From an uncultured Desulfomonile sp. (GTDB lineage Bacteria > Desulfobacterota > Desulfomonilia > Desulfomonilales > Desulfomonilaceae), in the NCBI GenBank assembly GCA_903952205.1, contig CAJBEZ010000064.1, forward strand, positions 1 to 32,000: a stretch of 32,000 nt of DNA, read 5' to 3'. The translations under genes were made by a program, and so were the position numbers. Shown here piece after piece: positions 1,839-8,034 of this stretch. Each line of letters opens with the position of its first letter. Within the stretch, counting starts at the first letter, position 1. The notes beneath the pieces were generated by a model that saw only the letters and a list, made by a program, of their open reading frames with translations, was not told where the DNA came from and ran no database searches.

Positions 1839-3590
1839 TTATGGCGCGGATGCGTAAATTATCGAGACAACTCCCGCCAGAACAAAGTTCCCATCGACAA
1901 GCCCTTCGAAAAGAAGCCGGTCCACCAGATGCCCTTTTTTGTAAAAGTCGACAAAAAACTTAAAGATCATCACATTTATTAATAAGAGGTAGCCAAATTT
2001 TGACGTCCACCCTTCCAAGCTCGACAAGATCAAGAGGCATGAAAGGAATAAAAGGGTGATGTTAAGAATTTTTTCAGTGGCGCGTCCGCCGAATAAAATT
2101 GGTATGGTTTCCCGACCGCCTATCCGGTCCCCCTGGATATCTATTAGGTCTGACAATGCCGTCCGCCAAAATACCATTCCCGCTGCGAAAATGAATGAAA
2201 CTACTATAGACGAAATTCCCGCCCACAGTTCACCTGAAAATGAAGGGATGATAGCGGCCGACATAGCCCACCCGATTGACACCAGCGGTGTCTTTGACCC
2301 TGGAATATCCTTTAATGATGACCATCTGCCCCCAAAAATCCGCATAGAAACTAGAATCGGAAGTGGATAGAGAATCCCGGTTACAATCATGCTCATGACC
2401 ATGATCATTGAAAGCCACCCGAGAAAATACGAAATCAATACGGACATCAAGGCCGCAACTCCACCTATGGCCCGCAGTATTTTCTGATGTCGACTATAAA
2501 ATTCAGCGATCTCCGGCGTGTTAAATCTAAGGGCGCCTGAACTTTCCTGTATCCGATTGATAAGATGCATTGAAAATACAAATAATGCCGTAACAATCGC
2601 CGCGGTAAAATCTACTTTGTTTTCCTGTAGAGCCGAACAGGCAAGAGTAAGGCCTGCTCCTCCCAGCGCCGCCCACATATAGGTCATTATCGTATAGTCG
2701 GCGAATAGTCTGAGTTTCGGATATATACCGGATCTGGTTTTGAGATCAATTTGTCTAAGTTTCTCCACCAGCGTTCTGATTTGCCAGTTGGGTGTACTAG
2801 CGCCCGCAGTTATCCCTATTGCTCTAATTCCATCAAAATCAGCAGGAAGTACCTGGTCAGCAGTCTCCACGTGTCGCACGCGGACTCCCTGCTCAAGGGC
2901 CACCTGAGCGAGTCGAATTGTATTGCCTGATCTCTTTCCCCCCACCACAATTATCATATCCACGCCCTGCGACAACGATTTTACTTCAGCCTGCCGCTTT
3001 ATGGTCGAATCGCAAATTGTGTTATATACGTGAAGAATAAGTCCCTGGTCCCTGAGATGTTGTACGATTTTTTCAAATTTCTCAGGCTCCTGGGTTGTTT
3101 GGGCTACGACGCACAGTTGTCTGTCGGCAGGAATCTGATCCAGTCTTGAGATCTCCTCCAGACTGGAAATAGAAATGCCACCAGATTGAGCAAAGCCGCT
3201 CAGACCTCTAACTTCCGGATGATCCTCATCTCCAACAATAACACAGTAATCTCCCTTTATTGAGTGCTTCTGAATTAAGGCTTGAACCCTCTTGACTCTG
3301 GGACAGGTAGCGTCAACGATGTAAACACCTTTGGCGTCCAGCGCCAGCCTTTCTTGAGGCGAGATCCCGTGGGCTCTTATTATGACAGTCCCAACATGAA
3401 CCTGATCAATTGAATCAACTTGAGAGATGCCCCTGCTGTTCAACAGATCAATGGTCTGAGGATTGTGTATTAACGGTCCATACGTGACTGTTGGAAGAGG
3501 GGGTTGTTGCCGGTTCAGATCGAGAGCCATGTCAACGGCTCTTCGAACACCCATGCAAAAACCAGCGGTTTTGGCAATTTGAATTCTCAT
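1839..3590 (-). CDS. ispH: 4-hydroxy-3-methylbut-2-enyl diphosphate reductase (IspH/LytB) fused to a C-terminal polytopic UbiA-superfamily-like prenyltransferase domain
   Basis: Residue numbers follow the 584-aa ORF-track translation that starts at 3593. The N-terminal ~285 aa align by eye with IspH and keep the three cluster cysteines (GFCMG, ATCPRV, ICDST). From about residue 296 there are roughly nine hydrophobic helices. These carry LKDIPGSKTPLVSIGW and a canonical DxxDxxxD-GxxT motif (DLIDIQGDRIGGRETIP, nt 2127-2150), typical of UbiA-family enzymes. The ATG at 3590 overlaps the upstream gene's TGA (TGATG). The ORF track instead starts at a TTG at 3593. Confidence 0.85.
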   Translation of the reverse strand: MRIQIAKTAGFCMGVRRAVDMALDLNRQQPPLPTVTYGPLIHNPQTIDLLNSRGISQVDSIDQVHVGTVIIRAHGISPQERLALDAKGVYIVDATCPRVKRVQALIQKHSIKGDYCVIVGDEDHPEVRGLSGFAQSGGISISSLEEISRLDQIPADRQLCVVAQTTQEPEKFEKIVQHLRDQGLILHVYNTICDSTIKRQAEVKSLSQGVDMIIVVGGKRSGNTIRLAQVALEQGVRVRHVETADQVLPADFDGIRAIGITAGASTPNWQIRTLVEKLRQIDLKTRSGIYPKLRLFADYTIMTYMWAALGGAGLTLACSALQENKVDFTAAIVTALFVFSMHLINRIQESSGALRFNTPEIAEFYSRHQKILRAIGGVAALMSVLISYFLGWLSMIMVMSMIVTGILYPLPILVSMRIFGGRWSSLKDIPGSKTPLVSIGWAMSAAIIPSFSGELWAGISSIVVSFIFAAGMVFWRTALSDLIDIQGDRIGGRETIPILFGGRATEKILNITLLFLSCLLILSSLEGWTSKFGYLLLINVMIFKFFVDFYKKGHLVDRLLFEGLVDGNFVLAGVVSIIYASAP

Positions 3591-4225
3591 CAAACCCTGT
3601 TATTGTTTATGAATTTGGAAACGACCGTCGAATAATCTTCAGGTGTATCTATGTCGGTGTCGTCGTATTTCTGTCCTAGTTCAACCGTATGAATCATTCT
3701 TCCTTCCATAGCCAAAATTTCTTTACCGCCTTTGTCCCCGGAAATCTTTCTCAACTTATTGAAAAAAGATGCTGGGAAAATAACTGGAGTGGTTTTTCTA
3801 CCGAAAATTGACGGGACTACTATCTTGTCGGAATTCCCGAGACTTTCTCCAACCAGCTTATCAATCAGGAAGGTATTTAACAAAATCTGGTCCGCCAAAA
3901 TTATCATCACCGCTTTGGCTTCCACACCAACCTGCGTTAATCCCAGCTTAATGGATAAGGACATGCCTTCTTCCGGCCAGAAATTTGATACATTGGTAAC
4001 ATCTTTCTTAAAAAAGCGAGAATATTGTTCAACCATGTCAAGATCTAAGCCAGGCCGTGTTATTGTTACGATTTTACCTATTCTTGAATTTAGAGTTTCA
4101 ATCAACGTTTTATTTAGAACTGTTTGTCCAGAAACCTTTAAGGCCATTTTGTCAGACCCCATTCTGGTCGACAACCCCGCCGCAAGAATTATAGCTTCTA
4201 CTCTTTGTTCGTTGCTGAAATTCAT
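3590..4225 (-). CDS. MobA/MocA-like nucleotidyltransferase (NTP_transf_3-type)
   Basis: The 211-aa ORF has an N-terminal AIILAAGLSTRMGSDKMAL motif. It also carries GMSLSIKLGL, ILADQ, GDKGGKEIL and a C-terminal DIDTPEDY, all characteristic of MobA/MocA-type molybdenum-cofactor nucleotidyltransferases and related enzymes. It appears translationally coupled to the ispH fusion. Confidence 0.75.
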   Translation of the reverse strand: MNFSNEQRVEAIILAAGLSTRMGSDKMALKVSGQTVLNKTLIETLNSRIGKIVTITRPGLDLDMVEQYSRFFKKDVTNVSNFWPEEGMSLSIKLGLTQVGVEAKAVMIILADQILLNTFLIDKLVGESLGNSDKIVVPSIFGRKTTPVIFPASFFNKLRKISGDKGGKEILAMEGRMIHTVELGQKYDDTDIDTPEDYSTVVSKFINNNRV

Positions 4226-6659: not shown

Positions 6660-8034
6660 TGTGTTTGTTCAAACCTCCTGAAATTGTGGCCAAGTCTATA
6701 AGATCGTTAACTCGAGACTGTACGCTTTGAGCGACTTCAAGATGAGCCTCGGTCTTCTTTATACGCTGATCTACATAATTGCTGTAATCTATGAGACCAG
6801 ACCTGTAGTTACTCAAAGCTTTTTCTTCAGCCAGATCAGCCAACTTGGCCCGCTCTCTGCTTAAACCTTCCTTTTCATTCGACAGCCCTATACCATTCCT
6901 GAGCTTTTTAAACGTAATATATAGCTGCTGGGAGAGTTTTTCACGGTCAAGGTTGTATTTCTGCGCCAATAGTTTCTGCCTTTTTATGTCGCGAACACGA
7001 CGAAAGCCATCCCACAGATAATAATCAACACCTATTGCCATATTAAGCCCGGACGTCGCATTAGGGGTGTTAGTGTCCTGTTGAAACACGAACTGAGGTT
7101 GAGGCACAAGAGCCACATAAGCTCCAGTCACCGAATTCGATTGAACCTGCTCTTTTTTAGCAGAGATTTTTAACTGAAGATTGCTCCCCTGTATATCCGT
7201 AAACGTGATCCAATTCGATCGAAAACCATTGAGTATCTGGTTGGCTGCGTCTCTTGTATCCAGAGGAAGATAGTAATCCGGATGATAGCCAATAATAGCC
7301 TTCAATCGGTTTATGTTTTCTTGGAGATCGTTTTCAAGAGACCTGATTTTGATCTGCTGTGAACGATAATCATTCTGAAGCGCCTGTAATTCTAAAGGAT
7401 CCATTTTCCCTTGATCATTCATGCTCTTTCCAAAGTTCAATTTGTCCTGAACAAGCGCAAGGATCTGCTTGGAACCTCTAATTGATTTTTCAAGAGTGTG
7501 AATCCCGTAAAAAACTTTTGCTACCTTGGCTGTGGCGTCTGAGATCTTCTCAAAATGAGATATTTTAGCGATATCCACCATTGTCGATTTGGATTTAATT
7601 TTTAGGAGAGCCAGGTAAGGATTCCAGTTAAGCATTACGAACTGAACGTTCCAGTTGTTGGCGTTTGGATCATTAACGTTGAATGTTCTTACAAGGTAAT
7701 ATCTAGTGGTGACTTGAAGTGTAGGTAAAATTTCAGAGTGTGCGTCTTTTAAATCTATTGACGCAAGCTGAATGTCGATTCTGTTTGTTGTAAGATCGTC
7801 TGAATGGACAAGCGCATAACGAACGCAGGTCGGGAAGTCGAAGTAGCCATAGGATTCAGGCTTGATCTGAACTTCTGCGTGACCAGTTGAAACTAAACCA
7901 AGAGTAATAGCAGACCAAAACAAAAGGATAGCCACTACGCGTATTAATCCCATCGGCAAAACCACAGGCAGGCCTCGACCGGAAGATTGTTTCCCAGATC
8001 TAATGTCGGCGTTTCTCGTGGCAAAAGATATCAC
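6640..8034 (-). CDS. TolC-family outer-membrane efflux protein
   Basis: The ORF is 464 aa with a signal-peptide-like region (MGLIRVVAILLFWSAITLGLVSTGHA). It has the duplicated alpha-helical/beta pattern typical of outer membrane factors. The ORF track starts at a GTG at 8034. An internal ATG at 7953 would place the signal peptide at the N terminus and may be the true start. Confidence 0.8.
   Translation of the reverse strand: MISFATRNADIRSGKQSSGRGLPVVLPMGLIRVVAILLFWSAITLGLVSTGHAEVQIKPESYGYFDFPTCVRYALVHSDDLTTNRIDIQLASIDLKDAHSEILPTLQVTTRYYLVRTFNVNDPNANNWNVQFVMLNWNPYLALLKIKSKSTMVDIAKISHFEKISDATAKVAKVFYGIHTLEKSIRGSKQILALVQDKLNFGKSMNDQGKMDPLELQALQNDYRSQQIKIRSLENDLQENINRLKAIIGYHPDYYLPLDTRDAANQILNGFRSNWITFTDIQGSNLQLKISAKKEQVQSNSVTGAYVALVPQPQFVFQQDTNTPNATSGLNMAIGVDYYLWDGFRRVRDIKRQKLLAQKYNLDREKLSQQLYITFKKLRNGIGLSNEKEGLSRERAKLADLAEEKALSNYRSGLIDYSNYVDQRIKKTEAHLEVAQSVQSRVNDLIDLATISGGLNKHNAAIRY

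Follow-up and report, generated by a model that had tools for sequence, protein, structure and literature searches.

Near the start of the window, by which we mean the whole 32,000-nucleotide stretch of DNA from an uncultured Desulfomonile sp. that was analysed here (assembly GCA_903952205.1, contig CAJBEZ010000064.1, positions 1 to 32,000), five genes lie head to tail on the minus strand between positions 1839 and 8034. In the direction of transcription they encode a TolC-like outer membrane factor (OMF; 6640–8034), a HlyD-type membrane fusion protein or periplasmic adaptor (MFP; 5562–6659), a polytopic GT21-type glycosyltransferase (GT; 4289–5482), a MobA/MocA-like nucleotidyltransferase (NTP; 3590–4225) and an IspH::UbiA fusion (open reading frame, ORF, at 1839–3593). 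A further gene on the same strand, 5′ of the OMF, encodes a small secreted protein of 155 residues, called hyp155 here (8348–8815), which has a hydrophobic N-terminal signal or anchor followed by a conserved domain of about 115 residues. The fusion and the GT both have their closest homologs in proteins named Desulfomonile or Desulfomonilaceae. An earlier reading of this DNA, made from the sequence only, proposed that the five genes form one operon and a self-contained module for making and exporting a prenylated or isoprenoid-anchored glycoconjugate. This analysis is concerned with which of the five genes belong together, and with what they are likely to do.

The domain calls of the sequence-only reading are all confirmed by Pfam and NCBIfam. 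The OMF (464 residues as listed) contains two repeats of PF02321 OEP (89 bits, cut-off 22), and the adaptor (365 residues) matches HlyD_3 (33.7 bits, cut-off 22.2). Classification by hidden Markov models, which that reading had suggested for two of the genes, places the GT (397 residues) in Glyco_transf_21 (PF13506), that is GT21 (25.2 bits, cut-off 21.7), and the NTP (211 residues) in NTP_transf_3 (PF12804; 95.5 bits). The fusion is a single ORF of 584 residues that matches LYTB with 280 bits and UbiA (PF01040) with 44.6 bits (cut-off 34.2); its IspH (LytB) domain is encoded at 2745–3590, and its UbiA-fold membrane domain, of about nine helices, at 1842–2708.

The spacing of the genes is compact, and is as had been described. 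The OMF and MFP genes overlap by 20 nt (6640–6659), and gaps of 79 nt and 63 nt separate the MFP from the GT and the GT from the NTP. The stop codon of the NTP gene overlaps the start codon of the fusion within the sequence TGATG (read ...GTT TGA TG AGA ATT...), and the start of the fusion is therefore taken to be the ATG at 3590 rather than the TTG at 3593. A promoter-like site (TTGACA-17-TATACT, 8173–8145, minus strand) lies 5′ of the OMF and matches the sigma-70 consensus at 11 of 12 positions. It is a consensus match only, and since the scan finds many such sites (26, against 14.5 ± 4.4 expected) it is weak evidence. A terminator scan revealed no convincing terminator in the intergenic gaps of the cluster. 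The Rfam scan of the window found only tRNAs, with no riboswitch or leader 5′ of the OMF and no cyclic di-GMP (c-di-GMP) riboswitch. The ORF list and Pfam show no pump gene inside the five-gene run. Five co-directional genes are not in themselves unusual, but the partial conservation of this arrangement across species, described below, exceeds chance.

Gene order in relatives was analysed by tblastn of the five window proteins, the 155-residue ORF and EF-Tu against 87 related loci (designated by L numbers). ORFs in these loci were also called crudely (longest ORF, greedy) and then clustered; the Desulfomonilaceae loci compared are species representatives. The common order in the Desulfomonilaceae-type loci is glgA-recD2(-)-small ORF(-)-hyp155-(MJ1255-type GT)-OMF-MFP-GT21-(ftsH)-(NTP)-IspH::UbiA-tRNAs-tuf-rpmG-secE-nusG. 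A contiguous five-gene order like that of the window is found in 5–6 species (L003, L007, L009, L013 and L015, with L006 having an inserted STAS gene). In nine species the GT is separated from the NTP by ftsH, with or without further genes. The NTP is missing from six species, where the GT abuts the fusion, and in three species the OMF-MFP-GT triad was not found within at least 9 kb upstream of the fusion. In the complete genome of D. tiedjei (CP003360), hyp155, OMF, MFP and GT21 are together at 616–634 kb (L088), with identities of 55, 50, 47 and 44% to the window proteins, and ftsH, NTP, IspH::UbiA and tuf are at 6.04–6.06 Mb (L001), about 1 Mb away by the short way round. The triad itself is contiguous in all 20 of the loci that possess it, and the 20-nt OMF/MFP overlap is present in about 17 of these. 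All of the rearrangement breakpoints either fall between the GT and the NTP or delete the NTP, and none falls inside OMF-MFP-GT. Outside the Desulfomonilaceae, 56 loci (from Desulfobacterales, Syntrophales, Nitrospinota and others) contain no OMF, MFP, GT or NTP near the fusion.

The run thus divides into separable units. Unit A (4289–8815) consists of hyp155, OMF, MFP and GT21, and is inherited and relocated as a block. Unit B is the MocA/MobA-like nucleotidyltransferase, which is a lineage-specific neighbour. Unit C is the IspH::UbiA fusion, a predicted housekeeping reductase of the methylerythritol phosphate (MEP) pathway tethered to a UbiA-fold membrane domain. Our reading, to which we assign a probability of roughly 0.6, is that the 6.2-kb run consists of separate units lying side by side within a glgA...tuf synteny block of the Desulfomonilaceae, and that Unit A is a putative glycolipid-delivery system. 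Units B and C may share the transcript of Unit A in this genome, without belonging to its function. As regards the proposed single operon, the compact, operon-like spacing stands, but the units come apart in relatives, by the split in D. tiedjei, the insertion of ftsH and the loss of the NTP. The expected conservation of the neighbourhood likewise holds in part: OMF-MFP-GT is kept in 20 loci and the full order in 5–6 species, but the NTP and the fusion are separable from it. The proposed self-contained module does not survive this comparison, the fusion being moreover a member of a published family that is widespread in sulfate reducers. Nothing found here points to a prenylated glycoconjugate, and the NTP and IspH::UbiA are neighbours of the channel-adaptor-GT unit and not components of it. 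It is worth adding that the flanking glgA, recD2, ftsH and tuf genes are equally syntenic in the family. Because the block includes these unrelated housekeeping genes, conservation of gene order is here weak evidence of shared function, and conserved order within a single family (glgA...tuf) can mimic an operon.

Within Unit A, the GT is marked out by its sequence as a predicted lipid-type GT21 enzyme and a full-length homolog of ceramide glucosyltransferase. The family profile aligns end to end with the solved ceramide glucosyltransferase 26qf (residues 12–387 to 17–391, E 4.9e-24). The best NCBIfam model is HpnI (TIGR03472), with 73.7 bits over the full length, which is below the equivalog cut-off of 310. 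A link to hopanoids by way of this likeness was considered and rejected: the score is too low, and neither the annotated window ORFs nor the fetched loci showed a gene for hopanoid biosynthesis. Invariant residues of the GT include D88, K118/N119 (in GQKNxNL), D140 (in FCDS), a WGGG motif, D227-D228 and R268-Q269. Pfam identifies no PilZ or other c-di-GMP domain in the protein, and by sequence it matches neither BcsA nor hyaluronan synthase.

The AlphaFold model of the GT (mean predicted local distance difference test score, pLDDT, 92.3) has a GT-A domain, one long N-terminal helix and three long C-terminal helices. When this model was compared with the PDB using Foldseek, the best matches were the processive hyaluronan synthases, with template modelling (TM) scores of 0.64–0.66; hyaluronan synthases and BcsA together span 0.56–0.66. 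No ceramide glucosyltransferase entry is among the fold matches listed. The ranking mirrors the architecture common to membrane GT2 enzymes, and the fold search could not tell whether the protein is a lipid GT or a processive synthase.

The genomic company of related GTs supports the glycolipid reading. Paralogs of the GT with 27–38% identity (L089, L090) occur in clusters with a large polyketide synthase, radical S-adenosylmethionine (SAM)/SPASM enzymes, a Polysacc_synt flippase and GT1 enzymes, and the cluster of the L089 paralog also holds a MacB-type ABC (ATP-binding cassette) transporter and an OMF homolog. Five relatives (L007, at 3957–5012, L009, L013, L015 and L023) have a GT of the MJ1255/VC2487 family (PF13528) between hyp155 and the OMF, which is not present in the window. 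In L090 a 35%-identical paralog of this MJ1255-family GT (15782–16921) lies beside the GT21 paralog. Since the MJ1255-family GT accompanies both the triad and the GT21 paralog of L090, this suggests that the two types of GT may act in sequence. Both the paralog clusters and the association with the MJ1255-family GT are in keeping with a glycolipid product.

The true start of the OMF is probably Met28, at position 7953. The protein has a hydrophobic segment at residues 19–52, followed by GHA-EV; a signal peptide is predicted by hydropathy only, and it has no lipobox cysteine. Orthologs of the OMF have 41–75% identity in 19 loci. The MFP has one N-terminal membrane anchor, at residues 12–38. It scores 21.8 bits against HlyD_D23, below the cut-off of 30, and its best NCBIfam matches, DevB and EmrA, are far under their cut-offs (34 bits against 129 for DevB). 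No ABC, RND (resistance-nodulation-division) or MFS (major facilitator superfamily) gene is found beside the OMF-MFP pair in any of about 20 related loci. The absence of a conventional pump, which the sequence-only reading had pointed out for the window, is therefore a conserved property in some 20 species.

In 12 further loci, that of D. tiedjei among them, a hyp155 homolog lies 5′ of the OMF. The protein has 32 residues that are invariant among 13 species, and a hydrophobic segment at residues 11–42. It has no Pfam family above threshold, with weak lipocalin-like matches to PF16369 in 5 of the 13 members (best E 0.008), and a sequence search of the PDB gave no match.

The window does contain one candidate for a distant inner-membrane partner. 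This is a lone MacB-type permease on the plus strand (16453–17643), which has MacB_PCD and FtsX domains, matches the permease half of MacB with 148 bits and is not LolCE-like. It lies 8.4 kb from the OMF-MFP pair, between mutS and a GlcD/GlpC-like oxidoreductase, with no ABC ATPase ORF alongside. It is a possible remote partner of the OMF and MFP. No counterpart turned up in the fetched portions of the related loci, which stop short of the corresponding region upstream.

Fusions of IspH and UbiA were described as 'Rosetta stone' proteins by Rao et al. (2015, Chem Sci; PMC4746011), who listed 47 such proteins in sulfate reducers. They placed the UbiA part, whose function was not known, in PT_UbiA_5, described two DxxxD motifs in it, and could not express the full-length protein. 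The fusion has therefore been known since 2015, and the family now turns out to have roughly tenfold more members than were listed then. When the UbiA-like domain by itself was used in an exhaustive HMMER search, 833 representative clusters were obtained, nearly all of the top matches being fusions of about 580 residues, and a scan with one genome per species found relatives of the fusion in at least 462 genomes. (An earlier word-indexed search with the UbiA domain had given fragments only, and the exhaustive search was used for the distribution.) The protein of the window resembles the published fusions in its layout, with IspH first and a UbiA-like domain of about nine helices at the C-terminus, in its length of about 580 residues, and in coming from sulfate-reducing Deltaproteobacteria (Desulfobacterota). 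It differs from the published description in that the first motif is degenerate, and in that the Desulfomonilaceae copies lie beside tuf with a MocA-like gene upstream. Outside the family, the recurrent neighbours of the fusion are ParA, ParB, a YacP-like NYN protein, EF-G, an M48 peptidase and a convergent PlsY. In L031 and about 30 other Desulfobacterales-type loci the fusion gene follows parA-parB-yacP(NYN); plsY is immediately 3′ of the fusion in 16 such loci (convergent in L031), and an Smr gene comes after it in 11.

The IspH domain is predicted to catalyse the final step of the MEP pathway, as a 4-hydroxy-3-methylbut-2-enyl diphosphate (HMBPP) reductase. It scores 265.5 bits against TIGR00216, above the cut-off of 187.85, and in 16 orthologs the three [4Fe-4S] cluster cysteines C13, C97 and C194 are invariant, as are H43, H75, H125, E127, T166/T167, S222, N224 and S266. 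The profile of the UbiA domain gave no match to PDB sequences, and a fold search was therefore used. The model (pLDDT 84.5) is closest in fold to ApUbiA (4od4, TM 0.67), digeranylgeranylglyceryl phosphate (DGGGP) synthase (6m31, TM 0.57; 7bpu) and AfUbiA (4tq4). The second Asp-rich motif, DLIDIQGDRIGGRETIP, is conserved and intact (D482, D485 and D489). The first motif reads NRIQESSGA in the window, where NDxxDxxxD is expected, and the family consensus here is MH(I/L)LN(R/H)xxD(K/R)xAxxxNDPxR. Among 85 family members the first motif takes the form N[RH]xx[DE]xxx[AG] instead of NDxxDxxxD, while the second motif is kept. Because the canonical first motif is missing, a routine role as prenyl-diphosphate transferase is disfavoured.

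The NTP has the LAAGxSxRMG...K signature near its N-terminus and a MobA-like fold, and the nearest matches of known structure are MobA/MocA-related proteins to which no function has been assigned. It aligns end to end with MocA (TIGR03310, 140.4 bits, below the cut-off of 186.45) and scores 101 bits against PucB, so that it falls under every equivalog cut-off. The caution in the sequence-only reading, that this protein looks closest to molybdenum cofactor enzymes, was well placed. Signature, fold and collinear alignment are thus those of MocA and MobA; unlike these, the NTP is below the MocA cut-off and has no molybdoenzyme or molybdenum cofactor genes nearby. It was also considered as the IspD of this genome, and this was rejected, the scores being 24.7 bits for PF01128 (cut-off 27) and 26 bits for TIGR00453 (cut-off 181). 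A canonical IspD-IspF fusion gene is present on L090, the contig with the 38%-identical GT paralog, which comes from the same metagenome as L006; this is weak further support against an IspD role, the taxonomy of L090 being unchecked. The NTP adjoins the fusion in 24 Desulfomonilaceae loci, is absent in six and is never adjacent to it outside the family. The distance between the two genes is variable: several loci have stop/start overlaps, and the widest gap is about 400 nt.

Unit A can be compared with several known systems. The sequence-only reading had noted that a membrane GT can work with an MFP-like partner, and precedents are indeed available. BgsA/BgsB/TolC of S. meliloti is a proposed GT-MFP-TolC tripartite system for mixed-linkage glucan (PMC13438883), and the cyanobacterial extracellular cellulose system, as cited there, is proposed to be of the same type (Maeda et al., 2018). 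As in these, a polytopic GT gene of family-2 fold adjoins a HlyD-type adaptor gene, with a TolC-type channel as the predicted outlet and no ABC, RND or MFS pump. The GTs of the Bgs and cellulose systems are processive, BcsA-like and regulated by c-di-GMP, and tolC is unlinked, whereas the GT of Unit A is of the GT21 lipid type and has no c-di-GMP domain, and the OMF is encoded within the unit, overlapping the adaptor gene.

A second comparison is with DevBCA-HgdD, which exports heterocyst glycolipids (PMC6161253). Here too there is an adaptor and a TolC-like channel, in that case used specifically to carry a glycolipid past the outer membrane, and DevB is the best NCBIfam match of the Unit A adaptor, albeit at only 34 bits against the cut-off of 129. 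Unlike DevBCA-HgdD, Unit A has no DevC permease or DevA ATPase. With ceramide glucosyltransferase and HpnI, the GT shares a full-length collinear match, the order of N-terminal helix, GT-A domain and C-terminal helices, and the residues D88, K118/N119, D140 and D227-D228. It differs from them in that the (Q/R)xxRW motif is cut to RQ and in that its gene adjoins those for an MFP and an OMF, and no squalene-hopene cyclase or sphingolipid genes occur in the window.

On the basis of these comparisons, we hypothesise that Unit A synthesises a glycolipid and passes it on to the envelope, as a variant of the known GT-adaptor-TolC systems; this is the reading that best fits the unit. The GT21 enzyme would act on the cytoplasmic side, moving a sugar from a nucleotide sugar onto a membrane lipid, candidate acceptors being lipids of the diacylglycerol, ceramide or alcohol type. 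In some species the MJ1255-family GT would then extend the GT21 product. The product would be handed to the adaptor-channel duct and so reach the outer membrane or the cell surface. The inner-membrane partner of the duct could be the GT itself, or an unlinked ABC transporter of the MacB/DevC type. The bolder form of this idea is that Unit A is a pump-less envelope-spanning machine, in which the lipid-type GT21 replaces the inner-membrane transporter and couples glycolipid synthesis to the adaptor-TolC duct. We offer this form tentatively, and on balance consider it doubtful. If true, such a duct would be a route for glycolipids to the outer membrane that is undescribed for GT21 enzymes.

Several observations weigh against the division into units or against a glycolipid product. 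The GT has RQ(I/W/M)(L/V)(F/Y/I) in place of the (Q/R)xxRW motif that GT21 and GT2 synthases typically carry; in the window this reads R268-Q269-I-L-F, with no Arg-Trp. The fact that the best fold matches are processive hyaluronan synthases leaves room for a polysaccharide product. The RxxxLxxxxxxS (RLS) motif, which forms the TolC-docking tip, was not found in the window MFP by a regular-expression search, and PDB searches with the MFP and the OMF gave no match by sequence to any solved structure. The TGATG coupling of the NTP and the fusion, together with the short gaps, suggests that all five genes are co-expressed here. Finally, the association of GT, adaptor and channel is seen in one family only, and vertical synteny could hold unrelated neighbours together.

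The alternatives differ in how many of the genes they tie together. If all five were one operon for a prenylated glycoconjugate, the IspH::UbiA fusion would supply the prenyl anchor, the NTP would activate a sugar or alcohol, the GT would build the product and the MFP and OMF would export it. The compact co-directional spacing with its 20-nt and TGATG overlaps, the single strong promoter-like site upstream with no clear internal terminator, and the same order in 5–6 related species with a fusion identity of 55–67% are all what would be expected. We nevertheless consider such a module highly improbable, given that about 1 Mb separates the two parts of the run in D. tiedjei, that ftsH stands between GT and NTP in nine species and the NTP is absent in six, and that the fusion occurs without these partners in 56 distant loci, as a widespread housekeeping-type gene beside tuf or parAB. 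Moreover, the NTP is MocA/MobA-like and not a sugar-1-phosphate nucleotidyltransferase, and a GT of the lipid-acceptor type needs no polyprenyl carrier. A smaller version of this idea treats the NTP and the UbiA domain as a lineage-specific pair, in which the NTP product is used by the atypical UbiA and the degenerate first motif reflects a non-diphosphate donor. In its favour, the NTP is directly 5′ of the fusion in 24 loci, several with stop/start overlaps, and the first Asp-rich motif is non-canonical throughout the family. Against it, the UbiA motifs are conserved in the six Desulfomonilaceae and all 56 distant loci in which the NTP is absent. With an intergenic gap that varies from overlap to about 400 nt, and an NTP closest to the molybdenum cofactor enzymes MocA and PucB, this pairing seems to us improbable.

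The other two alternatives concern Unit A itself. Adaptor and channel genes are sometimes encoded away from their pumps, and the OMF and MFP could belong to a conventional tripartite efflux or type-1 secretion system with its pump encoded elsewhere, for example the MacB-type protein at 16453–17643, with the GT a mere neighbour that has an unrelated role in the envelope. The presence of that permease 8.4 kb off without an adjacent ATPase, and the weak DevB- and EmrA-type matches of the adaptor, fit this explanation, and synteny inside one family can be purely vertical; yet the GT follows the MFP in 20 of 20 loci, even after the relocation in D. tiedjei, and about 20 species have no pump gene beside the pair. 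We judge it to be rather unlikely, though worth keeping in mind. Alternatively, Unit A could be a synthase-dependent exopolysaccharide system of the Bgs/Xcs type, in which a processive GT translocates the glycan into the MFP-OMF duct. This draws on the systems already proposed for mixed-linkage glucan and cyanobacterial cellulose, on the hyaluronan synthase and BcsA folds (TM 0.56–0.66) that best match the GT model, and on the retention of a membrane GT gene next to a HlyD-type adaptor gene in 20 loci; in addition, Pgt of Agrobacterium, a bacterial GT21, is reportedly processive. On the other hand, the GT sequence matches ceramide glucosyltransferase and no polysaccharide synthase, it has only about four long helices and lacks the QxxRW tryptophan, and neither a PilZ/c-di-GMP domain in the GT nor a c-di-GMP riboswitch was found. 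An exopolysaccharide system is in our view unlikely.

Returning to Unit A as a glycolipid-delivery system, the OMF-MFP-GT21 unit is possibly a new variant of the GT-adaptor-TolC systems, a suggestion backed only by comparative genomics in one family. If the three proteins do work as one machine, the GT-adaptor-TolC principle would extend from polysaccharide synthases to a lipid-type GT. A new envelope glycolipid would then also be indicated for the Desulfomonilaceae, the family of the cultured organohalide respirer D. tiedjei. For Unit C, the role of the UbiA half of IspH-UbiA, a question dating from 2015, is sharpened by the larger family, the housekeeping contexts and the non-canonical first motif.

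Other features of the window can be noted briefly. Two ORFs, one of 170 residues (26332–26844, minus) and one of 249 residues (30514–31263, plus), have no Pfam match at E ≤ 1e-5. Upstream of hyp155, the region 9082–9781 has a local GC content of up to 0.477, with terminator-like hairpins at 9752–9781 and 9828–9845; relatives have recD2 here. Within it, a 173-residue Pro/Ala/Gly-rich ORF on the plus strand (9202–9723) has a signal-peptide-like N-terminus and overlaps a minus-strand ORF of 153 residues. A Sulfotransfer_3 family protein is encoded beside mutS (12411–13622, plus). At the other end of the run, outside the units discussed here, genes for tRNA-Thr, Tyr, Gly and Thr (1324–1768, minus; ARAGORN and Rfam) are followed on the same strand by tuf (EF-Tu, 12–1205). 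Directly after the fusion stop codon, a TTGACA box resembling a −35 element and an A/T-rich stretch resembling a −10 element (1795–1835, minus) are likely to be the promoter of the tRNA-Thr/Tyr/Gly/Thr-tuf operon.

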